From NCBI GenBank assembly GCA_963748625.1, contig CAVVJT010000007.1, positions 1,056,001-1,120,000 on the forward strand: a stretch of DNA of 64,000 nucleotides, in the 5' to 3' direction. This stretch comes from an uncultured Chloroflexia bacterium. GTDB taxonomy: Bacteria > Chloroflexota > Limnocylindria > Limnocylindrales > CSP1-4. Positions 8,905 through 47,435 of this stretch are shown piece by piece (positions within the stretch are counted from its first letter, which is position 1; each line of letters begins with the position of its first letter). A program made the position numbers and the translations under genes. Under the pieces are notes generated by a model, which saw nothing but the letters and a program-made list of their open reading frames with translations, searched no databases and had not been told where the DNA came from.

Positions 8905-8979
8905 GCCGTGGCACGGCCCGAATCGCGGCCCGCGTGAACCCCGGCGGCCCCGCGTGACTCCTTCGAAGCAGGAGGGCTG

Positions 8980-9537
8980 ATGGCGGCACCAGTGGACCCG
9001 GTACGGATCGAACGGGCCCGGAAGGGTGATGCCGCCGCATTCGAGGCCCTCGTGGAGGCTCGGGTCGGACCGATGACGCGCACGGCGATGGCGATCCTGG
9101 GGCGGGAGGACGAGGCGCTTGACGCTGTCCAGGACTCGCTCGTCATCGCCTGGCGGGAGCTGGCCTCGCTCCGCGACCCCGCCGCCTTCGACGCCTGGCT
9201 CACCCGGATCCTCGTCAACCGCTGCAAGCGCGGCCTCCGGGGCGTCGTCCGCCAGCGCGTGCGCGAGATCCCCGCCGACCAGGTGGCCGCAACTGCCGAC
9301 GAGCCATCCTCCCTCGACGCCCACGTGACCGGCATCGGCCAGCGCGACGCACTGGAGCGCGCGTTCGAGCGCCTGACCGTGGACGAGCGCACGATCCTGG
9401 TGCTCCACCACCTCGACGGGCGGCCGCTGGCCGAGATCGCCGCCGTGCTCAAGGTCCCGGTGGGAACGGCCAAGTCGCGCCTGTTCGCCGCGCGCCGTTC
9501 GCTCGACCAGGCGCTGGAGCGGGAGGGCGGCCGATGA
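8980..9537 (+). CDS. ECF sigma-70 factor
   Basis: GDAAAFEAL, DAVQDSLV.AWR, FDAWLTRILVNRC, EIAAVLKVPVGTAKSRLFAARR; GGAGGG RBS. Confidence 0.93.
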   Translation: MAAPVDPVRIERARKGDAAAFEALVEARVGPMTRTAMAILGREDEALDAVQDSLVIAWRELASLRDPAAFDAWLTRILVNRCKRGLRGVVRQRVREIPADQVAATADEPSSLDAHVTGIGQRDALERAFERLTVDERTILVLHHLDGRPLAEIAAVLKVPVGTAKSRLFAARRSLDQALEREGGR

Positions 9538-32718: not shown

Positions 32719-33003
32719 ATGGTGACGAACCGCGTCTACAAGGCCCTCGCGGACCCCACCCGCCGGCGCATCCTCGCGCTCCTCCGGGAGCGCCCGATGA
32801 CCGCGGGCGAGCTCGCGTCCCAGTTCGAGCTCGCGTGGCCCACGATGTCCGGCCACTTCGCCGTCCTGCGCGAGGCGGGCCTCATCCAGGCCGAGCGCGC
32901 GGGCTCGACCCTCACCTACCGGCTCAATCAAACCGTGCTCCAGGAGGCCCTCATGGCGCTCATGGACATGCTCGGGGTGGATCCCACGGAGCGCCCAGCA
33001 TGA
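32719..33003 (+). CDS. ArsR family repressor (SdpR-like)
   Basis: YKALADPTRRRIL.LL...MTAGELA..F...PTMSGHFAVLREAGLI. Confidence 0.9.
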   Translation: MVTNRVYKALADPTRRRILALLRERPMTAGELASQFELAWPTMSGHFAVLREAGLIQAERAGSTLTYRLNQTVLQEALMALMDMLGVDPTERPA

Positions 33004-33677
33004 ACCTGCGCACCTTCTACATCGTTGCTGCAGTTGGCATCGTCGCGCAGCTCGCCCTCGCCGCATGGGGGTTCGTCCAGGTCGGCTTCACCGGGACCGT
33101 GCCCATGCATTGGGGCGTGAACGGCGAGGTGGACGCGTGGGGACCCGCCTGGCTCTCGTTCCTGCTCGCACCGGTCGTGTCGATCGGCCTCACCGCGCTG
33201 TTCGGCGTGCTGCCCCGCTTCGAGCCGCGCCGGGAGAACCTGCAGCGCTCGGCACGCGCGTACCGCCAGCTGGGGATCGCGGTGATCGCGCTGATGACGC
33301 TGGTGGAGATCGGCGTCGTGCTGGCGGCCACGGGCCGCGACGTGCCGATGGCGTTCCTCATGGGTGTCGGGGTTGGCGTGCTGTTCATGGTCATCGGCAA
33401 CCAGATGGGCACGGTGCGCGCGAACTACATGTTCGGCGTGCGCACACCCTGGACGCTCACCAGCGACCTCGCCTGGGACAAGACGCACCGGCTGATGGGG
33501 CGCCTCTTCTTCCTGGGCGGCCTGGGCCTGGTGCTGCTGTCCCTGTTCGGTCGGCCCGAGATCGTGCTCGTCGCGATGCTCGTGTTCATCGGGGCCATCC
33601 TCGTGGTCGGCTTCGTCTACTCCTACCAGGTCTGGAAGACCGATCCGGACAAGCACACGAACGGGAGCGTCTTGTGA
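33000..33677 (+). CDS. SdpI family immunity membrane protein (DUF1648 + SdpI)
   Basis: VPMHWGVNGEVD, NYMFGVRTPWTL.S..AW.KTHRL.G. Confidence 0.9.
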   Translation: MNLRTFYIVAAVGIVAQLALAAWGFVQVGFTGTVPMHWGVNGEVDAWGPAWLSFLLAPVVSIGLTALFGVLPRFEPRRENLQRSARAYRQLGIAVIALMTLVEIGVVLAATGRDVPMAFLMGVGVGVLFMVIGNQMGTVRANYMFGVRTPWTLTSDLAWDKTHRLMGRLFFLGGLGLVLLSLFGRPEIVLVAMLVFIGAILVVGFVYSYQVWKTDPDKHTNGSVL

Positions 33678-35026
33678 ACCTGCCCGACGGATTCGATCCC
33701 GCGCTTCTGCTGTTGATCGTCCCGCTCGTCCTGCTGGAGCTGGGCCTCCTCGTCTACGCCATCTACGACCTGCTCAAGGAGGGTCGGTACGTGCGGGGTG
33801 GCTCGAAGGCCGCCTGGGCCGTGGTGATCCTGTTCCTCAACGGCATCGGGCCGCTCGTCTACCTGCTCGCGGGCCGGGTGGACCGCCCTGCCGACGATCC
33901 TCCAGCCCAGGGGCAGCCCGGTTGGGGCAGCCCCCACGATCCGCCGCCTGCCGGCACGGTGCCGCCGCCTGCCGGCACGACACCCACACCCACGTGGGCC
34001 CAGCCCGGCGCATCCACGCCCGCCGCGTCCCCACCCGCCGCGTCCCCACCCGCCGCGTCCCCACCCGCCGGGCCGGCGGCCATCGCGATCACCGGGCTCA
34101 CGAAGCGCTACGGCGGCGGCGGCGTCCTGGCCCTCGACGCACTCGATCTCATCGTCCCGAAGGGCTCCGTGTTCGGTCTGCTCGGACCGAACGGCGCCGG
34201 CAAGACGACCACCCTGCGCATCATCGCCGGCCTCACCCGGCCGACGGGAGGGCGCGCGGTGGTGGACGGCACCGCTGTCGACGATGATCCGCTGGCCGTA
34301 CGCCGGCACCTCGGCTTCCTCGAGCAGGACCCGCGCGCCTACGGCTGGATGACCGGCCGCGAGCAGGTGGCCCTGCTGGGCCGCATGCACGGGCTGGCCG
34401 GGGACGCCCTCGCGGACGCCGTCGCCGGCGCCCTCGCACGCGTGGACCTCGGCGCCGCGGCCGACCGGAGGACGGGCACCTACTCGGGCGGGATGCGCCA
34501 GCGCCTGGGGATCGCGGGGGCGCTCGTGCATCGGCCGCCCATCGTGATCCTCGATGAGCCGGCGAGCGCCCTCGATCCGGAGGGGCGACGAGACGTCCTG
34601 GAGATGATCGCCTCGCTGCGCGGCGAGACCACCGTCCTCTTCTCCTCCCACGTCCTCGCCGACGTCGAGCGGATCTGCGACCGGATCGCCATCCTCGACC
34701 ATGGCCGCCTCGTGGTGGAGGGACCGCTGGCCGAGCTCCTGGATCGCTACGCCCTCCCCGTCTACCGCGTGGAGGCGGAGTCCGGCGAGGGGGCTGCGCT
34801 GGAGCAGCTCGCCGCCACCCTCCGCACAACACCGTGGGTCACGGCAGCCGCCGTGGAGCACGGCGTGCTCACGGTCGCCGTGGCCGACCCGGCCGTGGCC
34901 GCCCGGGAGCTCCTGCCGGCGATCTCCGCCGCCGGGGTGCCGGTGGTCTCGGTGGCGCGCGCACGCCCGACCCTCGAGGACGTGTTCCTGCGCCTGACCG
35001 GCGATGACCGGGAGGCGGCGGCATGA
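33674..35026 (+). CDS. ABC transporter ATPase with N-terminal PLDc_N-like two-TM domain
   Basis: K.AWAVVILFLNGIGPLVYLLAGR; Pro-rich linker; GPNGAGKTT, YSGGMRQRLG, LDEP. Confidence 0.88.
   Translation: MNLPDGFDPALLLLIVPLVLLELGLLVYAIYDLLKEGRYVRGGSKAAWAVVILFLNGIGPLVYLLAGRVDRPADDPPAQGQPGWGSPHDPPPAGTVPPPAGTTPTPTWAQPGASTPAASPPAASPPAASPPAGPAAIAITGLTKRYGGGGVLALDALDLIVPKGSVFGLLGPNGAGKTTTLRIIAGLTRPTGGRAVVDGTAVDDDPLAVRRHLGFLEQDPRAYGWMTGREQVALLGRMHGLAGDALADAVAGALARVDLGAAADRRTGTYSGGMRQRLGIAGALVHRPPIVILDEPASALDPEGRRDVLEMIASLRGETTVLFSSHVLADVERICDRIAILDHGRLVVEGPLAELLDRYALPVYRVEAESGEGAALEQLAATLRTTPWVTAAAVEHGVLTVAVADPAVAARELLPAISAAGVPVVSVARARPTLEDVFLRLTGDDREAAA
34019..34068 (+). repeat. 15-bp tandem repeat x~3 encoding PAASP
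   Basis: CCCGCCGCGTCCCCA repeated. Confidence 0.85.
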
Positions 35027-35796
35027 CCGGCCTGCGCGTCCTGCTGGGCAAGGAGCTGCGCGAGGCATGGCGCACGCGGCGCCTGCCGGTGGTGGCCATC
35101 CTCTTCGTGATCGTGGGCATCCTCTCGCCGCTGACCGCGCGCTACCTCAATGAGATCCTGGAGGTGGCGCTCGCGGGCCAGCTGCCGATGGCCCTCCCCG
35201 ACCCCACGATCGCCACCGTGGTGGAGCAGCTCCAGAAGAACCTGGGCCAGCTTGGTGCCCTCGCTGCAATCGCACTCGCGATGGGATCGGTCGCAGGCGA
35301 GCTCGACAAGGGCACGGCGGCGCTCATCCTGGCGCAGCCCGTGACGCGGCCGGCGTTCCTGCTGGCCAAGCTGGTCGCCCTCGCGGTGGTGCTGCTGGTG
35401 TGCACCGTGCTCGGCGTGGCCGTGGCCTGGATCTATACCGCGATCCTGTTCGAGCCGGCCTCGATCGGGGGCTGGCTCGCCTTCGCCGTGCTCGCCTGGC
35501 TGGCGCTCCTGGCATGGGCATCCATCACGTTCCTCGCCTCGACGGTGACTGGATCCACCACCGCGGCGGCCGGCCTCGGCTTCGTGGCGCTCATCGTGCT
35601 GAGCCTGCTCGCGGTGCTGCCGGCGCTGGACCACGTCCTGCCAACCGGCCTCGCCCTCCCGGCATCGCTCCTCGCCGCGGGCAACGACGGAGCAGTCGAG
35701 GTCGGCAACCTGGCGACCGCCGTGGCTGGGACCGTGGTCCTGGTCGTGGCGTGTGCGGCGGGCGCCATCGCGTCGCTCCGCCGCCGGGAGCTGTAG
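35023..35796 (+). CDS. ABC-2 type permease
   Basis: KELREAWRT, VAGELDKGT..LILAQPVTR..FLLAK; 6 TM. Confidence 0.9.
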   Translation: MTGLRVLLGKELREAWRTRRLPVVAILFVIVGILSPLTARYLNEILEVALAGQLPMALPDPTIATVVEQLQKNLGQLGALAAIALAMGSVAGELDKGTAALILAQPVTRPAFLLAKLVALAVVLLVCTVLGVAVAWIYTAILFEPASIGGWLAFAVLAWLALLAWASITFLASTVTGSTTAAAGLGFVALIVLSLLAVLPALDHVLPTGLALPASLLAAGNDGAVEVGNLATAVAGTVVLVVACAAGAIASLRRREL

Positions 35797-36014
35797 GCGC
35801 ACGTGACCGGAGGACGCCGCGGACGCCGCGACGCCGGCTGTCGTGGATCGCGCGATCCACGCCCCAGTCCCGCCGCGACGGGTCCCCGGACCGTTGCGCT
35901 CCAGCACGCGACAGGTGTCGACGTCGCGCCACGGCAACGTGAACGCGCAGAACCGCCACAATGCCCGCACCACACCACCGTCCAAGGGGGAGGGCACCGG
36001 ATCCTCCGGAATCC

Positions 36015-39000
36015 ATGAGCGACACGGACCTGCCGGCCGCCGCACGTGCGGCCGGCTCGCAGCACCCGGAGCCCGAGGTGGCGCGGGACCGTCCCGACGC
36101 CTATATCGCGCGCGACCGGCGACGGGCGCTGCATGCCGGCCGGAACCTGCCTGACCGCGTCCAGGGCGCGGCCCTCTTCGCCGACATCAGCGGCTTCACC
36201 CCGCTCACGGAGGCGCTGGCCGGCGAGCTCGGGCCACAGCGGGGCGCGGAGGAGCTGGTCGCCAACATCGGGCGCGTGTTCCACGCCGTGATCGCCGAGC
36301 TCGATGCCTACGACGGCAACGTCATCTCTTTCGCCGGCGATGCGATCACCTGCTGGATCGACGGCGACGACGGCTCGCGCGCGTGCGCGGCGGCGATGGG
36401 CATGCAGGAGGCCATCGCCCGCACCGGCACCATCACCACGCCCGGCGGGACCATCGTGCAGCTCGCGATGAAGGTTGCGGTCGCGGTGGGCAGCGCCCGC
36501 AGGTTCGTCGTGGGCGACCCGGACATCCAGTTGATCGACGTCCTCGCCGGACGCCTGCTCGACACGCTGGCCGCCGCCGAGCACCACGCCGAGAAGGGCG
36601 AGATCGTGCTCGACCAGTCCGTCGTGGCGGCGATCGGGCCACGCCTGGTCCTGGGCGCATCGCGCGAGGATCCCGACACCGAGCGCACGCTACGGGTCCT
36701 GCTCGACCTGCGGGGCGATCTGCGGGGCGACGTGCCGGTCGTGCCGAGCGACGAGCCGGACCCGCTGCCGGACGACGTCGTCAGCCAGTGGCTGCTGCCG
36801 GCGGTGTACGAGCGGATGCGCACCGGGCGTGGCGAGTTCCTCGCCGAGCTGCGCCCGGCGATCCCGATCTTCCTCCGCTTCTCCGGTATCGACTACGACG
36901 GCGCCGAGGATGCGGTGGCCAAGCTCGACGACTTCGTTCGCGCGGCCCAGCGGGTGATGCACGGCTACGGGGGCAACGTCCTGCAGCTGACCCTCGGCGA
37001 CAAGGGCGCCTACCTGTATGGCGTGTTCGGCTCGCCGCGAGCCCACGAGGACGACGCCGCGCGCGCGGCTGCGGCGGCGCTCGAGCTGCGCGACCTCGAC
37101 CGCTCCACGGCCGTCCGGGACATCACGGTCGGCGTGGCGCACGGCCGGCTCCGGAGCGGCTCGTACGGGCATGCCATGCGTCGCACCTTCGTGTGCATGG
37201 GTGACGCGGTCAACCTCGCCGCACGCCTGATGACCAAGGCCCCGCCGGGATCGATCTACGTTGCCGACACCGTCCGTCAGGATGCCGGGGAGGCCTTCAT
37301 CTGGCAGCGCCTGGAGCCCCTCCGCCTCAAGGGCAAGGCAGAGGCCGTGCAGGCGTGGTCGCTGACCGGCTCGCTGGAGGGTGCCTCGCGCCGCAAGACC
37401 CGGTTCGAGTTGGACCTTGTCGGCCGGCTGGCGGAGCTCGAGGTCCTCGACCACGCCCACGCGGGCGCCCTGGCGGGTCGCGGCGCCGTCGTCGGGATCG
37501 CCGCTGAGGCCGGGATGGGCAAGTCCCGCCTGGTGGCGGAGTTCGTGCGCAACGCGCGCCGCGGCGGCCACATGGTCGTCTTCGGGGAATGCCAGGCGTA
37601 CGGCACCAGGACGCCGTACTTCGTGTGGCGGGAGATCTGGCGCCGCCTGTTCGGCCTCGAGGACGAACCGGTCGAGGCGCAGATCGCAACCCTCGAAGGG
37701 CAGCTGGCAGCCGTCAGCCCGGGCCTTGTCGCCCGTGCTCCGCTCCTTGCCGACGTCGTGGGGCTGCCCATCCCCGACACCGACCTGACGCGCAGCTTCG
37801 ACGCCAAGCTGCGGAAGGCCTCGCTCGAGGAGCTGCTCGGAGACGTCCTGCGCGCTCGCGCGGCCGAGGCTCCGTTCGTGGCAGTCCTCGAGGACTGCCA
37901 CTGGATCGACGAGCTGTCCCGCGACCTGCTGCACGGGCTCATCCGGGCGGCGAGCCAGCTCCCGGTCCTGTTCGTGCTCGCCTACCGTCCGGCAACGGAG
38001 CCCGGCGGTGGCCTAGGGGTCGCGGACGAGCCAGGTTTCACCGAGCTCGAGCTGGACCTGATGGATGCCGGCAGCATCGCAGTCCTCGCCCGCGCCAAGG
38101 CCAGCCAGCTCGCCGGCGCCGATGCGGTCGTCAGCGACGACCTGGTGACGCTCGTCGCCAGCCGTGCCGAAGGCAACCCGTTCTACGCCGAGGAACTGCT
38201 CTCCTACCTCGTCGCCCGGGGCGTGGACCTCGCCGATCCCGCCTCGGCAGCGACCGTCAGCGTCCCCGACAGCCTCCACAGCCTCGTGCTCTCGCGGATC
38301 GACGCCGCGGCCGAGAGCCCTCGCCGCACCATGAAGGTGGCCAGCGTTGTCGGCCGGGTCTTCGAGGCGCCGGTGCTGCCAGGCGCGTACGAGGAGCTGG
38401 GCTCGCTCGAGACAGTGGTGGGCGACCTCGAGGCCCTCCGCTCGCTCGACCTGGTCTCGCTCGATCGGGCCGAGGAGCAGGCCTGGATGTTCAAGCACGT
38501 GGTCACCCAGGAGGTGGCCTACGAGAGCCTGCCGTTCGCGCTCCGAGCGGACCTCCACGGGAGGGTGGGGGCCTACCTGGAGCGGCGGGAGGCGCAGGAC
38601 CTCGACCGCTGGGTGCCGCTCCTGGAGCACCACTACTGGCGGAGTGACCGGGAGGACAAGAAGCGCCTGTACCTCCGCCTCGCGGCCGAGGCGGCGCAGG
38701 CGTCCTACGCGAACCAGGCCGCGATCGCGTACTACGACCGGCTGATCCCCCTCCTCGAGGACGCCGAGCAGGTGGACGCGCAACTGAAGCTCGCGAAGGT
38801 CCTGGAGCTGACAGGCGCCTGGGTGCGCTCCGAGGAGATCGTGGGTGAGGCACGAGCCACGGCGGTCGGTCTGGCGGACACCGGCCGCGTTGCCTGGTGC
38901 GACACCGCCCTGGCCGAGGCCGCGCGCAAGCAGGGCCGGTACGACGAGGCCGGTGAACGCCTGGCGGCAGCGCGGGCAGGCTTCGAGGGGGTCGGTGCAG

Positions 39001-39776
39001 ACGACGGCCTCGGGCAGGTGCTGCACCTCGCCGGCACGCTCGCGGCGCAGCGCGGCGACTACGCGGCGGCGCGCGGGCGCTACCTCGAGTCGCTGCCGAT
39101 CCGCCACCGGCTCGGGGATCGCTCCGGTGAGGCCGCGCTCTACTCGAACCTGGGCGTGGTTGCCGAGTACTCCGGCGACTACGCGGCGGCCCGCACGTTC
39201 AACGAGCGCGCCCTCGCGGTGCGCACGGAACTGGGTGACCGCTGGGCGATCGGCGTGTCGCAGAACAACCTGGGGATGATTGCGCTCCATGAGCGGAGGT
39301 TTGCCGAGGCGCGCGCGTGCTTCGAGGAGTCCATGCGCCTCAACCGGGAGGTCGGCGACGCCTGGATGGTGGCGATCGGCCACAACAACCTGGGCAACGC
39401 GGCACGCGGTCTGGGCGACCTCGCGGCTGCCCGGGCGAGCTACGCGCAGAGCCTGCGCGCCTACCAGGCCTACGACGACCGGTGGGCCCTGGCCTTCCTC
39501 CTGGAGGACACTGCGATCCTCGGAGCCCGGCTCGGTGCTGCCGAGCGTGCGTTCGAGCTGCTGGGGGCCGCGGAGACGATGCGGACAGGGATCAACTCGC
39601 CTCGGGGCGCGGCCCTGGAAGAGGAGCTGAACGGCCATCTCGCGCAGGCAATGTCTGTGATTGGCACCGAGCGTGCCAATGCTGCGGTGCTGCGCGGCCG
39701 GAGGCTCGACACCGGGGCGGCGGTCAAGGTGGCATTGGAGCTGTGCCTCGACGCACCGGGTACCATCACGTTATAG
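36015..39776 (+). CDS. adenylate/guanylate cyclase with tandem cyclase domains, STAND/AAA ATPase and TPR repeats (sAC-like)
   Basis: LFADISGFT, FAGDAI, GDKG, GDAVNLAARLM; AEAGMGKSRL P-loop; LEDCHWID; GNPFY; NNLG TPRs. Confidence 0.92.
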   Translation: MSDTDLPAAARAAGSQHPEPEVARDRPDAYIARDRRRALHAGRNLPDRVQGAALFADISGFTPLTEALAGELGPQRGAEELVANIGRVFHAVIAELDAYDGNVISFAGDAITCWIDGDDGSRACAAAMGMQEAIARTGTITTPGGTIVQLAMKVAVAVGSARRFVVGDPDIQLIDVLAGRLLDTLAAAEHHAEKGEIVLDQSVVAAIGPRLVLGASREDPDTERTLRVLLDLRGDLRGDVPVVPSDEPDPLPDDVVSQWLLPAVYERMRTGRGEFLAELRPAIPIFLRFSGIDYDGAEDAVAKLDDFVRAAQRVMHGYGGNVLQLTLGDKGAYLYGVFGSPRAHEDDAARAAAAALELRDLDRSTAVRDITVGVAHGRLRSGSYGHAMRRTFVCMGDAVNLAARLMTKAPPGSIYVADTVRQDAGEAFIWQRLEPLRLKGKAEAVQAWSLTGSLEGASRRKTRFELDLVGRLAELEVLDHAHAGALAGRGAVVGIAAEAGMGKSRLVAEFVRNARRGGHMVVFGECQAYGTRTPYFVWREIWRRLFGLEDEPVEAQIATLEGQLAAVSPGLVARAPLLADVVGLPIPDTDLTRSFDAKLRKASLEELLGDVLRARAAEAPFVAVLEDCHWIDELSRDLLHGLIRAASQLPVLFVLAYRPATEPGGGLGVADEPGFTELELDLMDAGSIAVLARAKASQLAGADAVVSDDLVTLVASRAEGNPFYAEELLSYLVARGVDLADPASAATVSVPDSLHSLVLSRIDAAAESPRRTMKVASVVGRVFEAPVLPGAYEELGSLETVVGDLEALRSLDLVSLDRAEEQAWMFKHVVTQEVAYESLPFALRADLHGRVGAYLERREAQDLDRWVPLLEHHYWRSDREDKKRLYLRLAAEAAQASYANQAAIAYYDRLIPLLEDAEQVDAQLKLAKVLELTGAWVRSEEIVGEARATAVGLADTGRVAWCDTALAEAARKQGRYDEAGERLAAARAGFEGVGADDGLGQVLHLAGTLAAQRGDYAAARGRYLESLPIRHRLGDRSGEAALYSNLGVVAEYSGDYAAARTFNERALAVRTELGDRWAIGVSQNNLGMIALHERRFAEARACFEESMRLNREVGDAWMVAIGHNNLGNAARGLGDLAAARASYAQSLRAYQAYDDRWALAFLLEDTAILGARLGAAERAFELLGAAETMRTGINSPRGAALEEELNGHLAQAMSVIGTERANAAVLRGRRLDTGAAVKVALELCLDAPGTITL

Positions 39777-39907
39777 GCCATTCGGCATACTGAAAATGGC
39801 CCAAACGTCACATTACCCGTTGCCGTGACCTCCAAGAACGCGTAGTGTCACGGCCACTCGCGTCCCCGTGCCCTGGACTCGAGCACCTCCGTCACTCGAG
39901 GTTCACG

Positions 39908-42900
39908 ATGCGCTTCCGTCCCGTCCGCTTCGGTCCGACCCATTCCGGCAGCACGCCGAGCCGCGGCAGACCACGGATCGCGAAGCGGGCCGCGTCGCTG
40001 GGCGCTGCCGCGGTCATGGCGGCCACGAGCGTGCTGTCCATCGCGCCGGCGCCGGCGCGCGCGGCCGAGTACATGGTGGTCTCGACCGATGACAGCGGCG
40101 CGGGCACGCTGCGCCAGGCGATCCTCGACGCCAACGCGAGCCCCGGCTCCGATGTCATCTCGTTCGGATTCGAGGGACCCTACCCCCTCGTCATCCAGCC
40201 GGCGACGCCGCTCCCCGCCATCACCGGCAGCGTCACGATCGACGGGTCGATCGGTGGCAATCCCGCGATCCGGCTTGACGGCACCCTCATCGCGGACGTC
40301 GTCGGGAGCCTGAACGAGAACGGCCTGACCCTGAACGGGGGCGCCGGCGGCTCCACGATCACCGGCCTCCAGGTCGTGCGCTTCCCGGACAGCGGCATCA
40401 TGCTCAACGGCGTCTCCGGCGTGACGGTCGAAGGCAACTACCTCGGCACGGACGGCGCGGCCGACCTGGGCAACGGCGGCTACGGGCTCACCCTCTTGGG
40501 CGCCAACGGCAACACCATCCTGGGCAACGTGGCCTCCGGCAACGGCGCCCCGGCGGGCACCGGCGGCTGCTGCTCGGCCGGATTCGGCATCTGGCTGGGC
40601 GACGCGAATGCGGCCAACAACACCATCAAGGGCAACCGCATCGGGACCAACGCCGCCGGCACCGCGGCGATCGGCAACCAGAACTACGGCCTCGAGGTCC
40701 GCTCCCCGGACAACACGATCGGCGGGACCACCGCGGCGGACCGGAACCTCATCTCCGGCAACGGCCGGGGCGTGCACTTCGTCGGCACGACCCTCCAGGG
40801 CAATGTGTTCCAGGGGAACCGCGTGGGCACGAACGCGGCTGGCACGGCCGCGATCGCCAACGGCTCGCAGGCCATCCTTCTCAACGGCACCGACGACGCC
40901 ATCACGATCGGCGGGACCGCCGCTGGAGCCGGCAATCTCATCTCCGGCAACGGGAGCGCGATCATCCTGGGGTCGTCCTCGAACGCGCTGATCCAGGGCA
41001 ACCTGGTCGGCGTCGCCGCCGACGGCACCACGCCGCTCGGCAACGGGGGCGCGGGCGTCACCCTCAATCCCGGCACGAGCGCCACCGTCGGCGGGTCCGC
41101 GGCCGGCGCCGGCAACGTGATCGCCAACAACACCGGGGCGGGAGTCCTGGTCCTCGACCCATCGACCGGCAACAGCATCCTGGGCAACTCGATTCACGAC
41201 AACGGCGCCCTCGGCATCGACCTCGGCAACAGTGGCGTCACGGCGAACGACGCCGGCGACGTGGACACCGGGGCCAACGGGCTCCAGAACTTCCCGGTCA
41301 TCACCTCCACCAGCCCCACCAATGTCGCTGGGACCCTGGACTCCGCGCCGGGCGCCACCTACCGCATCGAGTTGTTCAGCAACACCACATGCGACGCGAG
41401 CGAGCATGGTGAGGGCGCCCAGCTGCTCAAGGTGGCCGTCGGACAGGCCCCAGGGCCGATCGGATTCGACGTCCCGGTGTTCAACGGCACCTTCCTGACT
41501 GCGACGGCCACCAACGAGACCACCGGTGAGACGTCGGAATTCGGCCCCTGCTTCGAGGTCACGGACGCGCTCCCTGCCCCAGGCTCGTGGTCGGCCTTCA
41601 AGAGCGCCACGACCGCCGGCACGTTCATGGCCGCCGGCAACGGTGCCGCCGGTCCGGCGCAGTTCACCTACGACCGCCTCGACCCACTTCCCAATGTGGC
41701 CGACGGCGGCGGGGAGTCCGGCGAGTGGACGTTCTTCACCACCGCGGGCTCGCCAGGGTCCATCACCGTTCCATGGCGCTACACCGGCTTCCACGCCTTC
41801 GCGGGGGTGACCGTCGGCCTGCGTGCCGTCGTGATCCGGGACGGCGACACCGAGGTGTCCAGCGAGGTGCTTGTCGATGCCGGGCCGCAGTCGTGCTGCA
41901 CGACGCCGTCCGCCGGCTTCGACTACACCGGCAGCGCCACGTTCGCGGTCCAGGCCGGCGACGTCTACGGCTTCGAGCTGACCGGCACCAACGGCGACAG
42001 CAACGACACCCTCAAGGGACAGCTCATCCTGGGCACCCAGGTCCCGACGAGCTGCTCCAACGCGCAAACGCTGTACGACACGACGTCCGACGGCCGGTAC
42101 GTCATCCACCCGATCGATGGCCAGCAGTTCTCCGTGTACTGCGACGGCATGAACGACACGCCGCGCGACTACCTGGACCTCAACGTGGAGCGGATCGGCC
42201 AGGGGTACAACTTCGCCTCCTACGACGCGGGCGATTCGCAGGGCACCGACGTCGTCACCAGCTTCACGAAGCTCCGCTTCGACCCGGCGACCCTCCGGGT
42301 GGACATCGGCGACCTCACGTTCGCCACCTCGACCGGCAGCCTGACCCATCCCGACCAGGGCGGCCCACAGACCGTGGCGTCCATGCCGTACGGCGTGGCC
42401 ATGGCCTGCAACAGCGGGGAGTGGGGCGACGGCGCCGCCAACGTGGACCTCTGGGGCACGCCGTTCGCGGTGGACGACGCCTGGGTCCCGCTGGGCACCG
42501 GCTCCGAGTTCTACGGCGGCGCGATCTTCTCGGGTGCGGACCAGACGGTGGACATCACCGCCAACGGCTTCTGCGGCTGGCGGACGCCGGACCCCGCGAC
42601 GTCGTTCTTCGTGTGGGAGACGCCGCCCGGCCAGGCCTACCTGCAGCTGCGCTACCTGAACGCACCCCCGGAGCCCACGCTCGCCACGCCAGTCCTGTTC
42701 GCGTCGGTCACCACGGCGCCGAACACCGCCGACGTGTACGGCCTCGTGGCCGGCGCGGCGAACCAGCACCTCGACCTCGAGATCCACGCCAGCGCGGCCT
42801 GCGTGGGCGGCGTGCTGCAGGATCCCGCACCCGTGATCGGCTCGGCCTCGGTCACGACCGACGCTGAAGGCTACTTCAAGGTGGCCGGCCAGTCCGGCCT

Positions 42901-43507
42901 CCCGTCCGGCAGGTTCGTGGCGGTGCATGTCACGAGCCCTGCCACGACGGATGTCTCCAGCTGCGTCCGCACCAGCGCCGACAACGACTACTGGCCCAAG
43001 GCCCTGGCCCTGGGCAACTCCGCATCGGTGAGCACGCAGGACGTCATCGACGTCCGCGGCAAGGCTCGCTGGTACCGGATCCCGGTCGTGCCCGACCAGC
43101 GCGTCACGGTGCGCCTCAAGAACCTGCCGGCGGACTACGACCTCGCGGTGTTCAAGGACATCGCGAAGGAGTTCGCCGCCCAGCTGGCGCCCGAGGACAC
43201 CACCGACCTGACCAGGCTCTCGGCAGAGTTCGCGCCCTCGGTGTTCAGCCCGAGCGTGTTCAGCCCGAGCGTGTTCAGCCCGAGCGTGTTCAGCCCCGAC
43301 GCCTACGCGCCGTCGGTGTTCAGCCCCTCGGTGTTCAGCCCGAGCGTGTTCAGCCCCTCGGTGTTCAGCCCGAGCGTGTTCAGCCCCTCGGTGTTCAGCC
43401 CGAGCGTGTTCAGCCCCTCGGTGTTCAGCCCGAGCGTGTTCAGCCCCTCGGTGTTCAGCCCCGAGCGTGTTCAGCCCCAGCGTGTTCAGCCCGAGCGTGT
43501 TCAGTGA
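39908..43507 (+). CDS. N-terminal part of giant secreted protein (beta-helix repeats, GON domain, PSVFS repeats)
   Basis: Signal peptide ending APARA; DSGAGTLRQAI..AN; GNRIGTNAAGTAAIGN repeats; frame breaks at ~43460. Confidence 0.85.
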   Translation: MRFRPVRFGPTHSGSTPSRGRPRIAKRAASLGAAAVMAATSVLSIAPAPARAAEYMVVSTDDSGAGTLRQAILDANASPGSDVISFGFEGPYPLVIQPATPLPAITGSVTIDGSIGGNPAIRLDGTLIADVVGSLNENGLTLNGGAGGSTITGLQVVRFPDSGIMLNGVSGVTVEGNYLGTDGAADLGNGGYGLTLLGANGNTILGNVASGNGAPAGTGGCCSAGFGIWLGDANAANNTIKGNRIGTNAAGTAAIGNQNYGLEVRSPDNTIGGTTAADRNLISGNGRGVHFVGTTLQGNVFQGNRVGTNAAGTAAIANGSQAILLNGTDDAITIGGTAAGAGNLISGNGSAIILGSSSNALIQGNLVGVAADGTTPLGNGGAGVTLNPGTSATVGGSAAGAGNVIANNTGAGVLVLDPSTGNSILGNSIHDNGALGIDLGNSGVTANDAGDVDTGANGLQNFPVITSTSPTNVAGTLDSAPGATYRIELFSNTTCDASEHGEGAQLLKVAVGQAPGPIGFDVPVFNGTFLTATATNETTGETSEFGPCFEVTDALPAPGSWSAFKSATTAGTFMAAGNGAAGPAQFTYDRLDPLPNVADGGGESGEWTFFTTAGSPGSITVPWRYTGFHAFAGVTVGLRAVVIRDGDTEVSSEVLVDAGPQSCCTTPSAGFDYTGSATFAVQAGDVYGFELTGTNGDSNDTLKGQLILGTQVPTSCSNAQTLYDTTSDGRYVIHPIDGQQFSVYCDGMNDTPRDYLDLNVERIGQGYNFASYDAGDSQGTDVVTSFTKLRFDPATLRVDIGDLTFATSTGSLTHPDQGGPQTVASMPYGVAMACNSGEWGDGAANVDLWGTPFAVDDAWVPLGTGSEFYGGAIFSGADQTVDITANGFCGWRTPDPATSFFVWETPPGQAYLQLRYLNAPPEPTLATPVLFASVTTAPNTADVYGLVAGAANQHLDLEIHASAACVGGVLQDPAPVIGSASVTTDAEGYFKVAGQSGLPSGRFVAVHVTSPATTDVSSCVRTSADNDYWPKALALGNSASVSTQDVIDVRGKARWYRIPVVPDQRVTVRLKNLPADYDLAVFKDIAKEFAAQLAPEDTTDLTRLSAEFAPSVFSPSVFSPSVFSPSVFSPDAYAPSVFSPSVFSPSVFSPSVFSPSVFSPSVFSPSVFSPSVFSPSVFSPSVFSPERVQPQRVQPERVQ
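43235..43505 (+). repeat. 15-bp repeat x17 (4+13, split by DAYA) encoding PSVFS
   Basis: GTGTTCAG every 15 nt, with one 30-nt gap and one 16-nt step at ~43460. Confidence 0.95.
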
Positions 43508-46500
43508 GGAGGACGTCGCGCGCGCCTTCTCGTCCGCCCAGACACGGAGCCTGATCGGCGTGTCGGCCCAGGCCGGGCCGGGCGACGAGTCGGTCGTCGT
43601 GAACTCGTGGAACAACACGGGCGACGTCTACATCCGGGTCTCCGGCCGCTCCGGCGCCTTCGACCTGGACGGCCTGTTCACGGTCGAGATCGAGAAGTCG
43701 GCCAGCACGTGCGACGGTGTCACCGACACCACGCTCACGCCGCGCGCCGACGCGCCTTCGGCTGGTGTCCAGTCGGTCATCCTCACCGACTCCTCGATCC
43801 TGCAGCTCGGCGACGCGGGCAACCCCGCATCGCTCCGCGCGTCGCTCGACGACTTCATCGCGAGCAGGGAGGTCGCCGGCATCCCCGTGGATGCTCTCGT
43901 GGATGTCGCGGGCGACGTTCGCGTCGGCGAGCTCAAGGCCCAGGTCGCAGCGCATCCGGCCTGCCCGTTCGCCGTCAACCTCCTCGCGGAGGAGATCAAG
44001 GGGATCGTGGACTCGTACCGGGCGAACAACCCCGGCCTGCGCTACGTGACCATCCTCGGCGGCGACACCGTCATCCCGTTCTTCCGCTACCCCGACCAGA
44101 GCCTCCTGGGCCAGGAGTCCGGCTACTTCCCGCCGGTGAAGAGCGACTCGATCTCCGAGGCGAGCCTCCGCAGGGACTACGTCCTCAGCCAGGACGCCTA
44201 CGGCTCCGGCGTGTCGGTCTCGCTCCGGATCAACAGCTTCCCCGTCCCGGGCCTGGCCGTCGGCCGGCTGGTGGAGACCCCGTCCGAGATCGCGGCGCTG
44301 CTGGACGCCTACGTGACGGCCAACGGCACGATCACCCCGGAGACGTCGCTCGTCACGGGTTACGACTTCCTGGAGGACGCCGCCAAGGGCGTCCGCGACG
44401 AGCTCGCCGCCGGCACGGGCACGGCACCCGACGACACCCTCATCACGCCCAACGGCGTCTCACCCAGTGATCCGCAGTCGTGGACCGCGGACCAGTTGCG
44501 GGCCAAGCTGCTGACGGGCGGCCGGCACGACCTCGTGTACCTGGCCGGGCACTTCTCGGCCAACAGCGCGCTGGCGGCCGACTTCAGCACCAGCGTCATC
44601 ACCACCGAGCTTGCAGCGTCGAGCGCGAACCTGGTCAACACGATCGTGTTCAGCGCCGGCTGCCACTCCGGGTACAACCTGCTCGACGCCGAGGCGCTTC
44701 CGGGCGCGTCGCTCCCGCTCGACTGGGCGCAGGCGTTCTCGCAGAAGCGCGCGATCCTGCTCGCCGGGACCGGCTACCAGTACGGGGACACCGACTTCCT
44801 CGAGTACAGCGAGCGGCTCTACCGTGACTTCGCCCGTGAGCTGCGGACCGGCACCATCGGCACCGCGGTCTCCATCGGCGAGGCGCTCCGCAATGCCAAG
44901 CTCACATATCTGTCCACGACCCCCGACATCCGGGGAATCCACGAGAAGGCGCTCCTCGAGGCGACCCTGTTCGGTCTGCCGATGTGGGGCGTGGACATGG
45001 ACGGCCAGCGGACCGGGACCCCGGGAGCCGGCACGGGGATCGCGCCGGCTCCGGTCACGAGCGGTCCCGCCTCGACGCTGGGCCTCGCCACGGCGCCGCT
45101 CCTGATCACCCCGAACCTGGGCCCCCGCAAGACCCTCGACCTCGTGAACGCCCCGTACACCAACCCGGCCGACACCACGACCGCGTCGTGGTACGAGGGC
45201 CCGGGTGGCGCCGTGACCACCAACCCCGCGGAACCGACGCTCCCGCTGCTCGTCCGCAACGTCACCTCGACGACCAGCGGCTATGTCCTGCGGGGGATCG
45301 GCTTCCGGGGCGGCAGCTACACGGACACCTCCGCGGTCACGCCGCTCACGGGTGCCCCCACGACCGAGCTGCGCGGGGTGCACGCACCCTTCGTCTCGCC
45401 CGTCTTCTTCCCGATGCGACCGTGGACGCCGAACTACTTCGGGGCGCTCGGCGGATCGGGTGGCACCAACCTGCTCACGACGCCCGTCCAGTACCGGGCC
45501 GACCCTGCCAACCCGGGCAAGGGCATCGAGCGCAAGTACACGGGCCTGGAGCTGAAGCTGTTCTACAGCAACAACCTCACCACGGCTGCCCTCTCCGAGG
45601 CACCGACCATCGTCAGCGTCGAGGCCGTCCCCGACGGCAGCGATCTCATCTTCTCCGCGGAGGTCGTGGGTGATCCAAAGGCCGCGGTCCACACCGTCTG
45701 GGTGACCTGGACCACCGGGACCGGGACGTGGGCACCGCTCGACCTCGCCCAGTGCGTGGCCCCGCTGCCGGCCGCCTGCGGAACGACGGAAGACTCACGG
45801 ATCTGGCGCGGCCGGCTGCTGAACAGCCCCGCGAACATCCAGTACGTGATCCAGGCCGCGAACGGCCTCGGCATGGTGTCGCTCAGCGACAACCTCGGGG
45901 CGTACTTCGGCCAGGCGGCTGCGGCCCCGTCGGCGGCGACCCTCGAGCTCGTCGATCCGCCCACCTCGGGCACCTTCGGCGAGACGAGGCCTGTCACCGT
46001 GCGGCTGACCTCGGGCACGACCGATGTCGGCGGCCGGACCGTCTTCGTCACCATCGGCGGCACAACCGCCTCGGGCACGACGGACGCGAACGGGCGCACA
46101 ACGGTCAACGTGCCGCTGAGCTCGCTGCCGGGTGCGACCCAGGTGAGCGCCTCGTTCGGCGGTGACGACACGTATGGCGCGGCCTCGGCGCCGGGCCAGC
46201 CGTTCAGCATCGGGAAGGCGGCGAGCAGCCTGGCAGTCACCGCCGGACAGAACCCGGTGGATTACGCCGCCGGCACCACCGTCAGCGCCACCCTCTCGAG
46301 CGGCGGCACGCCGCTGCTCCAGCGGACGGTCGCCTTCCTCGTCACCGCGCCGGGAGGGTCGACGACCCTCGCGTTGCGGACGACCGACTTCACCGGCAAG
46401 GCAACCCTCAACCTGCCTTCGGGGACCGTCGGGTCGTACGGGGTCGAAGCCCGCTTCGGGTCCGTGGTCAACGTCCCCGGCGGCGGCACGGTCGACCTGA

Positions 46501-47435
46501 CCGACGCGACCTACGGAGCGGCGGCGCAGGAGGTGACCGTGACGATGACGGCCGCGACCGTGACGACCGTCACGCTGGTGCGGTCGCCGCAGCCGTACGT
46601 GTACGACAGTTCCCCGTTCGGGGCGACCGCTGGCGTCACCGGCCCGGGACTCGACACGACCCTCAGCCCAACCTATACGGGTACGACCTTCGCCGGCAAC
46701 GTCTACGGCCCGACGGCCACCGCTCCGACCGATGCCGGCAGCTACCGGGCGACCGCAACCTACGCCGCCAGCGGCGGCTACGTCGCCAGCGAGGCCTCCG
46801 TCGACTACGTCGTCGGCAGGGCTGCCTCGACGGTGACGCTGACCCTCAACGGCACCTCGCCGTTCCCGTTCGACGGCCAGCCGCACGGCGCCACAGCCGT
46901 CGCGTCGGGGGTCGGCGGTCTCAACGTGCCCCTGACCGTGACCTACTCGGGCACGGGCTCGACGGTCTATCCATCGACGACCACGGCTCCGACCGCCGCG
47001 GGCTCCTACATCGCACAGGCCACCTACCTGGGCGGATCCAACCACACCGGCAACGCGGCCAGCGCCGCATTCACCATCGTGCCGTGGCCGTTCACCGGGT
47101 TCTTCGCCCCGGTGGACAACCTGCCGACGCTGAACACGGCGACGGCGGGACAGACGATCCCCGTCAAGTTCAGCCTGGGGGGCAACCGGGGCCTGGCGAT
47201 CTTCCAGCCCGGCTACCCCAGGGCCGTGACCGTCGCGTGCCAGGCGAACGCCACGCTCGACGTCATCGAGGAAGTGTCGACGGCCACGACGAGCGGGCTC
47301 CAGTACGACGCCACGACGAACCGCTACCAGTACAACTGGAAGACGGCCAAGACCATGGCGGGCAAGTGCTGGCAGCTCCAGCTCGGCCTGAAGGACGGCA
47401 GCACCGCCGCCCTGGCGAACTTCAAGTTCAAGTAG
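43467..47435 (+). CDS. C-terminal part of giant secreted protein (C25/gingipain-like clan CD peptidase, Ig/MBG-like domains, PxKF domain)
   Basis: YVTILGGD..IPF, AVGRL, VYLAGH, VFSAGCHSG, LFGLP; GFFAPVDN...TIPVKFSL...YQYNWKT. Confidence 0.82.
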   Translation: MFSPSVFSPSVFSEEDVARAFSSAQTRSLIGVSAQAGPGDESVVVNSWNNTGDVYIRVSGRSGAFDLDGLFTVEIEKSASTCDGVTDTTLTPRADAPSAGVQSVILTDSSILQLGDAGNPASLRASLDDFIASREVAGIPVDALVDVAGDVRVGELKAQVAAHPACPFAVNLLAEEIKGIVDSYRANNPGLRYVTILGGDTVIPFFRYPDQSLLGQESGYFPPVKSDSISEASLRRDYVLSQDAYGSGVSVSLRINSFPVPGLAVGRLVETPSEIAALLDAYVTANGTITPETSLVTGYDFLEDAAKGVRDELAAGTGTAPDDTLITPNGVSPSDPQSWTADQLRAKLLTGGRHDLVYLAGHFSANSALAADFSTSVITTELAASSANLVNTIVFSAGCHSGYNLLDAEALPGASLPLDWAQAFSQKRAILLAGTGYQYGDTDFLEYSERLYRDFARELRTGTIGTAVSIGEALRNAKLTYLSTTPDIRGIHEKALLEATLFGLPMWGVDMDGQRTGTPGAGTGIAPAPVTSGPASTLGLATAPLLITPNLGPRKTLDLVNAPYTNPADTTTASWYEGPGGAVTTNPAEPTLPLLVRNVTSTTSGYVLRGIGFRGGSYTDTSAVTPLTGAPTTELRGVHAPFVSPVFFPMRPWTPNYFGALGGSGGTNLLTTPVQYRADPANPGKGIERKYTGLELKLFYSNNLTTAALSEAPTIVSVEAVPDGSDLIFSAEVVGDPKAAVHTVWVTWTTGTGTWAPLDLAQCVAPLPAACGTTEDSRIWRGRLLNSPANIQYVIQAANGLGMVSLSDNLGAYFGQAAAAPSAATLELVDPPTSGTFGETRPVTVRLTSGTTDVGGRTVFVTIGGTTASGTTDANGRTTVNVPLSSLPGATQVSASFGGDDTYGAASAPGQPFSIGKAASSLAVTAGQNPVDYAAGTTVSATLSSGGTPLLQRTVAFLVTAPGGSTTLALRTTDFTGKATLNLPSGTVGSYGVEARFGSVVNVPGGGTVDLTDATYGAAAQEVTVTMTAATVTTVTLVRSPQPYVYDSSPFGATAGVTGPGLDTTLSPTYTGTTFAGNVYGPTATAPTDAGSYRATATYAASGGYVASEASVDYVVGRAASTVTLTLNGTSPFPFDGQPHGATAVASGVGGLNVPLTVTYSGTGSTVYPSTTTAPTAAGSYIAQATYLGGSNHTGNAASAAFTIVPWPFTGFFAPVDNLPTLNTATAGQTIPVKFSLGGNRGLAIFQPGYPRAVTVACQANATLDVIEEVSTATTSGLQYDATTNRYQYNWKTAKTMAGKCWQLQLGLKDGSTAALANFKFK

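Follow-up and report, generated by a model that had tools for sequence, protein, structure and literature searches.

The gingipains R and K (family C25, clan CD) are the described enzymes that come closest in predicted structure to the peptidase considered here, whose core finds its best structural matches in 4ief_D, 1cvr and 4rbm. In RgpB, an N-terminal prodomain inhibits the enzyme via a loop that is also the first site of autoprocessing (PMC4357240). Here we report on a locus of an uncultured Chloroflexia bacterium (contig CAVVJT010000007.1 of assembly GCA_963748625.1; the stretch of 64,000 nucleotides analysed is called the window), in which an apparently secreted protein of about 2500 residues carries an array of pentapeptide units, nearly all PSVFS, in front of a predicted gingipain-like peptidase. 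As in RgpB, a beta-sandwich with a long loop immediately precedes the catalytic domain. On the other hand, the sandwich is of a PPC/collagen-binding-like type without a match to the RgpB prodomain, its loop is a 90-residue perfect repeat devoid of Arg and Lys, the C-terminus is a PxKF domain, and the hosts are Chloroflexota, Actinomycetota and Proteobacteria of soil and water.

Two known families share single traits with the array or its surroundings. The PPC/collagenase collagen-binding domain (PF04151) has the same fold as the sandwich according to Foldseek, and finds a weak Pfam match to its N-terminal half. However, the domain described here has about 115 additional residues inserted between its two halves, is located N-terminal to the peptidase, and stays below the Pfam cut-off. 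The pentapeptide-repeat proteins (Rfr fold, PF00805) likewise repeat every five residues and place small residues around an aromatic or hydrophobic centre, but the present array has neither a match to their hidden Markov model (HMM) nor a predicted beta-helix, and holds a Pro in every unit.

Two further systems are comparable in logic. The heptads of the C-terminal domain of RNA polymerase II, like some other perfect protein repeats, are many identical short units that are kept by selection with differing codons, each unit being read by the same partners; the array differs in sequence, compartment, organisms and partners, and its unit changes between lineages. Quorum sensing of the RRNPP(A) type relies on secreted precursors and extracellular proteolysis, with a TPR receptor encoded beside the precursor and with lineage-specific peptides. 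Tandemly duplicated pheromone propeptides are described for such systems (PMC11343458). Here, too, several copies of a short peptide are placed on a secreted protein, a gene for a TPR protein is adjacent, and the units are lineage-specific. In contrast to RRNPP(A) precursors, the repeat is embedded in a folded domain, the protein has about 2500 residues and brings its own protease, and 18 copies follow each other without spacer. The neighbour is a cyclase-STAND-TPR protein and not an RRNPP regulator, the hosts are not Bacillota, and the system is known from sequence alone.

The array in the window and among relatives

Tandem Repeats Finder reports the array (Table 1) with a period of 15 at 43241-43504 (17.5 copies, score 298) and with a period of 30 at 43235-43504 (9.0 copies, score 403). 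A preliminary description of this DNA had listed it as a 17-fold PSVFS array at 43235..43505. The array is real, but it can be read in one frame only up to 43459, and the count of 17 requires reading through a frameshift (see below). The PDAYA unit does keep the five-residue register in the frame of the first open reading frame (ORF1), as had been stated.

Almost all units are encoded either as CCC-TCG-GTG-TTC-AGC or as CCG-AGC-GTG-TTC-AGC, so that Val is GTG throughout and the final Ser is AGC throughout. The two types were said to alternate strictly with a 30-nt period, which applies to 43325-43459; the first four units do not alternate, reading CCC-TCG once and then CCG-AGC three times. From the fact that TCG and AGC cannot be interconverted by one synonymous change it had been concluded that the peptide, not the DNA, is under selection. 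This argument does not establish it: the alternation is most simply a copied 30-nt block, for which one ancestral change is enough. The array DNA of the window is itself highly homogeneous, and looks like the result of a recent re-amplification. It is the relatives that carry the evidence for selection.

A word-indexed protein search returned 1083 proteins at E<=1e-3, of which the best 120 were inspected for arrays; a period-5 array is present in 101 of these, and the other 19 include ORF2 of the window itself. A genome scan with one genome per species found at least 566 relatives, from which 79 loci were kept. The array is found in 73 of the 79. Of the remaining six loci, five begin too far downstream to include the site, and one (L065:6150-6560) has a Pro-free hexapeptide array, GNAFVG, of about 17 units in this place. 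From this locus it seems that the regular spacing of aromatic residues is more conserved than the period or the Pro. The loci belong to Chloroflexota (Limnocylindria, Anaerolineae, Ardenticatenaceae, Caldilineaceae), Actinomycetota (Gaiellaceae, Acidimicrobiia, and Motilibacter deserti E257, locus L067, the sole isolate), Betaproteobacteria (Burkholderiales/Casimicrobiaceae), Verrucomicrobiota, Acidobacteriota and others.

Searches with custom HMMs of the peptidase and of either half of the sandwich identified 219 proteins or locus ORFs with all three, 206 of them non-redundant. The preliminary description had considered that homologues might lack a repeat at this position; a P-x-x-aromatic-S array is present there in 205 of the 206. 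Counted with the leading degenerate unit (SAEFA or SAEYA), exactly 19 aromatic pentads separate the sandwich halves in 120/206 members and 17-20 in 165/206, with outliers from 2 (the hexapeptide case) to 58. In the consensus unit, position 1 is P in 203/206. Position 2 is S in 133, D in 37 and E in 18 members (acidic in 55/206), and otherwise A, T, Q or G. At position 3, V (93) and A (76) prevail, followed by T, I, M and others. Position 4 is F in 198/206 (Y in 4, W in 3, L in 1), and position 5 is S or T in 199/206. Basic residues (K, R and H together) account for 4 of the 17830 residues in the 205 arrays. A variant at unit 5, mostly PDAY[A/S/T], is present in 93/205 arrays, with PDAYA 44 times and PDAYS 40 times among the variant units. 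Taken together, these sequences show that members from several phyla keep the array in the same place, with the same pattern of the unit and a similar count of units (19 aromatic pentads as the mode).

Some arrays deviate from this pattern. The protein P0121 (1501 residues) is the extreme length outlier, with 58 PDAFS units in residues 188-522, three times the usual number, and with EDEAA interruptions at intervals. The locus L010 has two tandem genes of the family with PSAFS arrays at 2499-2783 and 8913-9167, each with ADVFS at position 8, and an apparent frame change at the end of the second array. Analogous arrays of NPAIF, NPAIL, NPDIL or NPNLL also occur near residue 900-1000 of a second, unrelated set of giant proteins (P0148, P0155, P0176, P0185, P0198, P0208, P0232, P0257, P0151, P0193, P0202, P0252 and others), where they are followed by variable Kelch, beta-helix, HYR, CARDB or LamG domains. 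Proteins of this set show no match to the protease or the sandwich described here; two of them match HetL, a pentapeptide protein, weakly and below the threshold.

Selection on the peptide and turnover of the unit

In the 66 loci for which codons were compared, the 1028 units that have the consensus peptide of their own array fall into 714 DNA types, counted array by array and added up; the locus L031, for example, uses 16 DNA types for 18 identical PDAFS units. Pairwise codon differences within arrays comprise 20480 synonymous and 3071 non-synonymous ones. Measured against the modal unit, the figures are 2276 and 555, inflated for four loci in which the modal unit is arbitrary. Many loci use both Ser codon families at both Ser positions. 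This pattern shows that the peptide of each unit is under purifying selection while its codons drift. The repeat is functional for the same reason, because the relatives keep each unit's peptide while its DNA is scrambled. The earlier conclusion on selection therefore stands on the codon differences of the relatives, and not on the Ser codons of the window.

The order of the DNA types along the arrays is not random. Neighbouring units are less alike in DNA than in shuffled order in 50/61 arrays, and identical adjacent units occur 31 times, where 58.1 are expected (0 of 2000 shuffles gave a value as low). Mean identity is 11.2/15 nt for adjacent units and 11.8-11.9/15 nt for units two to four apart, and a period-2 codon pattern like that of the window is present in 17/66 loci. 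Either amplification in blocks of two or three units, or selection against identical neighbours prone to slipping, may account for such dissimilar neighbours. Position-wise codon patterns are common to 3 of 78 locus pairs with the same unit, all among the close relatives L002, L003 and L006, and so few shared pairs mean that these patterns cannot date the arrays.

Between lineages, the unit itself changes. On a FastTree phylogeny of 196 members, built with the array left out, the consensus unit changes at least 72 times (at least 28 times at position 2 and at least 44 times at position 3), as rough counts by unweighted parsimony. Within proteins, most arrays consist of 15-18 identical units despite their scrambled synonymous sites, and mixed arrays (P0076, P0079, P0099, P0113, P0177, L078) are a minority. 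These comparisons show that the units of one protein agree in their two middle residues, that these residues differ between lineages, and that the units are kept alike while their common sequence is replaced from time to time.

One gene interrupted by a frameshift

In the window, the array is cut by a C-run with one C too many, beyond which the frame of ORF1 reads PERVQPQRVQPERVQ followed by a stop codon. Together, the ORFs 39845..43507 and 43467..47435 make up a single gene of about 2540 codons, whose product is a secreted protein of several domains, because both frames align to contiguous residues of P0002, the closest intact relative (2259 residues): residues 2-971 are matched by ORF1 as far as 43459, and residues 972-1996 by the other frame from 43461 on, with a contiguous junction 971|972. 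The preliminary description had missed this frameshift, and also that array and protease belong to a single gene and that the array is an insert in a PPC-type domain.

An assembly error in a homopolymer is the likeliest source of the extra C. Four observations argue for this: the fifth 30-mer, after 43444, is perfect apart from this C; the unit number agrees with that of intact relatives (the layout of four units, PDAYA and 13 units is the same in P0002 and many others); the arrays of L007, L009 and L065 are frame-split as well; and these three loci all come from one series of metagenome-assembled genomes that contributes 16/79 loci. In L007 (about 6484) and L009 (about 6355) the frame is split at homopolymer-length changes, and in L065 the breakpoint is located somewhere about 6400-6500. 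Assembly errors by which a gene is broken seem to concentrate in arrays of this type. A programmed +1 frameshift at CCC-G was considered and rejected, as the intact relatives are in frame.

Two observations concern other apparent reading frames. The C-terminal 150-200 residues of P0012, P0073 and P0055 are rich in Arg, Ser and Pro and resemble an out-of-frame translation of the downstream domains; these tails look like further signs of indel errors in assemblies. A reverse-strand ORF (39848..43618, 1256 residues) that overlaps the whole first half of the gene was taken as a shadow ORF of this region with 71% G+C, because all homology falls on the forward strand.

Protein architecture and predicted structure

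The N-terminus of the protein holds a single hydrophobic segment (residues 49-67) followed by ARA|AEY; it looks like a signal peptide, in line with a secreted protein. ORF1 has Pfam matches to Beta_helix, NosD and GON, and ORF2 to Ig-like domains. Peptidase_C25 (PF01364) is matched by the homologues P0012, P0073, P0055 and P0024 with 32.2-39.1 bits (cut-off 23), but is not reported for ORF2 of the window at E<=0.01; the first 520 residues of ORF2 share 69% identity with P0012. The PPC family (PF04151) matches the N-terminal half of the sandwich only, just before the array, with 18-20 bits in P0012 and P0055 (cut-off 25.9). Extensin_1 (PF02095) reaches 19.8-28.3 bits on the array (cut-off 105), which is a match of composition only. 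In the PDB, residues 1-613 of ORF2 find 0 hits by sequence, and the profile of the alignment A1 (see next) finds non-significant hits only, with no gingipain among them.

Structures were predicted by AlphaFold2 in two runs, one for the homologue P0012 with a 36-row alignment (A1), and one for the sandwich and array of locus L005 with a 61-row alignment (A2). In the P0012 model, the peptidase core has block values of the pLDDT (predicted local distance difference test) of mostly 77-95. Foldseek places the RgpB and Kgp gingipains (4ief_D, 1cvr, 4rbm) on top, with target TM-scores of 0.48-0.57 (0.55-0.57 for the RgpB structures 4ief_D and 1cvr), and separases and CHAT proteases rank next. The motifs GHF and GCH with the candidate catalytic His and Cys are invariant in A1, and both are present in the window, in agreement with a His/Cys dyad on a caspase-like fold. 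Based on these models, the peptidase domain is probably gingipain-like and of clan CD.

Strands from both sides of the array combine into one beta-sandwich in the two models (pLDDT 80-88 for P0012, 90-96 for L005), while the array itself stays at about 30 and 32-42, respectively. The best Foldseek matches of the L005 sandwich are collagenase collagen-binding and PPC domains: 1nqd with a target TM-score of 0.78 (root-mean-square deviation 2.5), 4hpk with 0.75, 3jqw with 0.73 and 5sv5 with 0.62. DeCLIC N-terminal and enterotoxin C-terminal domains are also among the matches listed. No chain of the RgpB prodomain (4ief) is among the 50 top matches. The nearest clusters in the ESM Atlas include PPC-bearing ones (0.88-0.91), which can serve as a lead only. 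Helices flank the array on both sides, at residues 82-92 and 184-198 of the P0012 model and at residues 91-105 and 193-206 of the L005 model. The linker before the array has a conserved motif, DLxxL-SAEF/YA, in A2. Directly after the array, A-F-S-S-A-Q-T-R-S is near-invariant across phyla, with A and Q invariant and T and R kept in at least 90%. According to the models, array and flanking helices thus make up an insert of about 115 residues, which is predicted to be disordered. It is placed in a loop of a beta-sandwich of the PPC/collagen-binding type, and this sandwich immediately precedes the peptidase domain.

Table 1. Positions in the window of the array, its gene and the neighbouring gene
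Feature	Coordinates	Strand	Basis or remark
Repeat array	43235-43505	+	18 pentapeptide units, 17 PSVFS and 1 PDAYA, with the frameshift read through
Repeat units 1-15	43235..43459	+	Frame of ORF1 (39845..43507): 4x PSVFS, PDAYA, 10x PSVFS
Repeat units 16-18 (3x PSVFS)	43461..43505	+	Legible only in the frame of ORF2 (43467..47435)
Variant unit PDAYA (unit 5)	43295..43309	+	Conserved landmark; 5-residue register kept
Four perfect copies of the 30-nt block CCCTCGGTGTTCAGCCCGAGCGTGTTCAGC	43325..43444	+	The codon alternation of the preliminary description
C-run with one extra C relative to the repeat block (1-nt insertion)	43460..43463	+	Breaks the reading frame
N-terminal part of the gene: putative signal peptide, right-handed beta-helix, GON-like domain, sandwich N-half, 15 units	39845..43459	+	Frame of ORF1
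N-terminal half of the split PPC/collagen-binding-type beta-sandwich (VRTSADNDYWPK...DYDLAVFKD)	42965..43159	+	Strands in homologue models (pLDDT 85-96), weak Pfam PPC match, Foldseek
Pre-array linker, helical in models, ending in the degenerate unit SAEFA (43220-43234)	43160..43234	+	Homologue models, alignment A2
Post-array helix EEDVARAFSSAQTRS with conserved AQTR motif	43506..43550	+	Homologue models, alignments
C-terminal half of the split PPC-like beta-sandwich (LIGVSAQAG...FTVEIEKS)	43551..43700	+	Models, Foldseek
Gingipain-like (C25, clan CD) peptidase core, predicted	43776..44993	+	Pfam in homologues, alignment A1, Foldseek
Candidate catalytic His in AGHFS	44544-44558	+	H527 invariant in A1
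Candidate catalytic Cys in AGCHSG	44655-44672	+	C564 invariant in A1
PxKF domain, C-terminal, at gene end	47094..47435	+	NCBIfam NF038114, E 4e-36, residues 1212-1324
Conserved neighbour, 1271 residues: cyclase homology, AAA_16 (STAND-type) ATPase, TPR	35961..39776	+	Directly upstream

The neighbouring gene

The product of the upstream gene matches the Pfam families Guanylate_cyc (residues 345-463), AAA_16 (486-672) and TPR (1058-1170). No hydrophobic segment was found in its 1271 residues, and the protein is presumably cytoplasmic. A homologue (41-75% identity by tblastn) adjoins the protease gene in 54/79 loci, with more than 500 residues covered in 49; many of the 25 loci without such a match are short. 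The homologue lies upstream in the loci of Limnocylindria, Gaiellaceae and Betaproteobacteria, and downstream in loci of the Anaerolineae type. The few loci without it that were scanned for neighbours have other genes beside the protease: a TPR and HATPase_c protein in L024 and L028, a kinase and TPR protein in L077, a TPR protein in L068, and a GGDEF-EAL protein in L067.

The nearest NCBIfam models match the neighbour far below their cut-offs: it scores 170.8 bits (cut-off 705.75) with the model of a TOMM system kinase/cyclase fusion protein and 55.1 bits (cut-off 1125) with that of a RiPP-linked TPR protein, and belongs to neither family. Among the 13 window ORFs and 40 locus ORFs scanned, there are no peptide-maturation genes, apart from the fused peptidase. 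Compared at matched identity of the cyclase and ATPase parts, locus pairs with the same unit slightly exceed those with a different unit in TPR identity (0.49 versus 0.449, 0.565 versus 0.54, and 0.667 versus 0.585). The direction is the expected one, but the comparison is confounded by relatedness and gives a lead only.

Further upstream, at 32835-35796 (+), the window encodes a membrane protein of the SdpI/YfhL family and an ABC transporter pair (ABC_tran with a DrrA-like C-terminus, and an ABC-2 permease).

Possible functions of the array

Units that are uniform within a protein and differ between lineages, at saturated synonymous sites, suggest that each unit is a copy of one motif read by a co-evolving partner. 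Based on this, we tentatively favour a reading of the array as a multi-copy cassette for recognition, or as a substrate, that is perhaps cut by the fused peptidase. Every unit would then be a copy of one recognition motif. The likeliest partner would be the fused peptidase, to which the exposed loop would be offered as a multi-copy substrate. Autoprocessing would open the loop and might set free a single pentapeptide in many copies, and the conserved Arg of AQTR, which ends a loop free of basic residues beside a gingipain-like enzyme, could be a processing site. The cytoplasmic cyclase-STAND-TPR neighbour would be a candidate sensor of the released product, TPR being a peptide-binding module. 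The preliminary description had mentioned a cassette processed by the adjacent protease as a speculation, and the context of a disordered loop beside a clan CD peptidase, lineage-specific units and a TPR neighbour may revive this idea.

An extension of this reading, which we regard as doubtful, is a signalling module of two genes: a secreted cassette cut by its own protease, uptake of the pentapeptide, a TPR-STAND sensor with a response via cyclic AMP, and pherotypes set by the two middle residues. Traits of a signalling or RiPP precursor that are present in the window are repeated identical units (17), an N-terminus like a signal peptide, and an adjacent TPR gene.

Several points weigh against a cassette of this kind. 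Known clan CD peptidases cut after R, K, N, D or L (PMC4357240), but none of these occurs in units of the PSVFS type. A loop that resists an Arg/Lys-specific enzyme would explain the scarcity of basic residues equally well. A tightly kept unit number is unexpected for a simple product cassette and points to a requirement for length or valency. In the full-length AlphaFold model of P0012, the array is not docked on the peptidase with any confidence. Covariation with position 3 of the unit (V or I versus A) was searched over 230 variable columns of sandwich or peptidase and is unconvincing, the best column reaching 5.0 versus 0.4 of 13 independent pairs; for position 2 (acidic or not), 2 supported independent pairs, or 8 on all branches, gave little power. 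A link between a cytoplasmic neighbour and a secreted protease needs import of the peptide, for which no importer was identified, and the neighbour could simply regulate expression.

A possible, though on balance unlikely, alternative is that the loop is never cut, and acts as a disordered segment of calibrated length. As the flexible lid, tether or spring of a pro-domain-like sandwich, it would govern how the peptidase is reached or activated. Such a loop would be built to remain disordered and to resist proteases, with evenly spaced aromatic "stickers" for weak multivalent contacts. The tight unit number (19 pentads in 120/206), the disorder predicted in both AlphaFold2 runs, and the composition, with Pro at every fifth residue and 4 basic residues in 17830, are all in favour of it, as is the Pro-free GNAFVG variant of L065, which retains only the regular aromatic spacing. 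The place just before a gingipain-like domain recalls the N-terminal prodomain of RgpB, which is inhibitory via a loop (PMC4357240). However, the sandwich is PPC/collagen-binding-like, and prodomain chains of RgpB are absent from its 50 listed matches. Moreover, a mere spacer should tolerate mixtures of S, A and T or of V, A and I, but most arrays consist of 15-18 identical units.

It appears improbable that the array serves as a scaffold for post-translational modification, e.g. O-glycosylation of the Ser before each Pro, which would create a mucin-like protective or adhesive loop. Position 5 is S or T in 199/206 members with Pro always next, the protein seems to be secreted, and uniform units would suit one modifying enzyme. 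Yet consensus units without Ser or Thr exist (PDQWA, PGAFA, PEVFA), and no glycosyltransferase or hydroxylase was found among the neighbours scanned (13 window ORFs, 40 locus ORFs).

The preliminary description had also proposed a beta-solenoid or an amyloid-like assembly that clusters the protease. We consider such a folded or self-assembling repeat, including a helix of the pentapeptide-repeat type, very improbable, and the proposal is not supported by our data. Uniform units and a fixed unit number would suit a stacked ladder, and the S-V-F core is similar to the middle of certain pentapeptide repeats. The luminal domain of SV2C, a pentapeptide-repeat beta-helix, was matched in a profile search, but not significantly (E 0.46). 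Against these stand a pLDDT of about 30-42 without any strands in the array in both AlphaFold2 runs, and the lack of a PF00805 match at E<=0.01 in the window ORFs and in the five intact homologues P0012, P0073, P0055, P0002 and P0024. In addition, a folded ladder would need to bury the Pro of every unit and the D or E at position 2 of 55/206 arrays, and the hexapeptide variant of L065 breaks the period. A complex prediction in which the array and its flanking helices (A2 residues 76-210) were entered three times scored 0.00 against a mark of 0.42, and is neutral on binding.

A functionless low-complexity linker kept uniform by homogenisation at the DNA level (slippage or gene conversion) would agree with the near-uniform array DNA of the window (four perfect 30-mers, Val always GTG) and with the turnover of the unit between lineages, but is hardly tenable in view of relatives whose DNA is non-uniform under a uniform peptide, of neighbouring units that are less alike than shuffled ones (50/61 arrays; 31 versus 58.1 identical adjacent pairs), and of a position, unit number and PDAY landmark at unit 5 that are conserved across phyla.

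Implications

No publication containing the repeat strings was found in a search of the main texts of articles, and literature on PxKF, choice-of-anchor, the C25 family, and C25 or gingipain-like proteins with Chloroflexota and related terms returned nothing relevant. Perfect peptide repeats with scrambled codons are rare in bacteria, and are direct evidence that something reads every copy. The repeat described here is spread over hundreds of genomes, which belong to several phyla of soil and fresh water, within giant proteins that appear to be secreted gingipain-like proteases. Arrays of this type are also places where long-read assemblies break genes.

If the cassette is indeed processed, it would represent a new kind of peptide signalling or a self-activating protease, and a two-gene module would be a self-processing peptide-pheromone system outside Bacillota. 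If the loop is not cut, nature would offer here a clean case of selection that acts on the exact sequence, aromatic spacing and length of a disordered segment. Either way, 18 units, one isolate strain and one neighbouring gene provide a defined and testable handle on these proteins.

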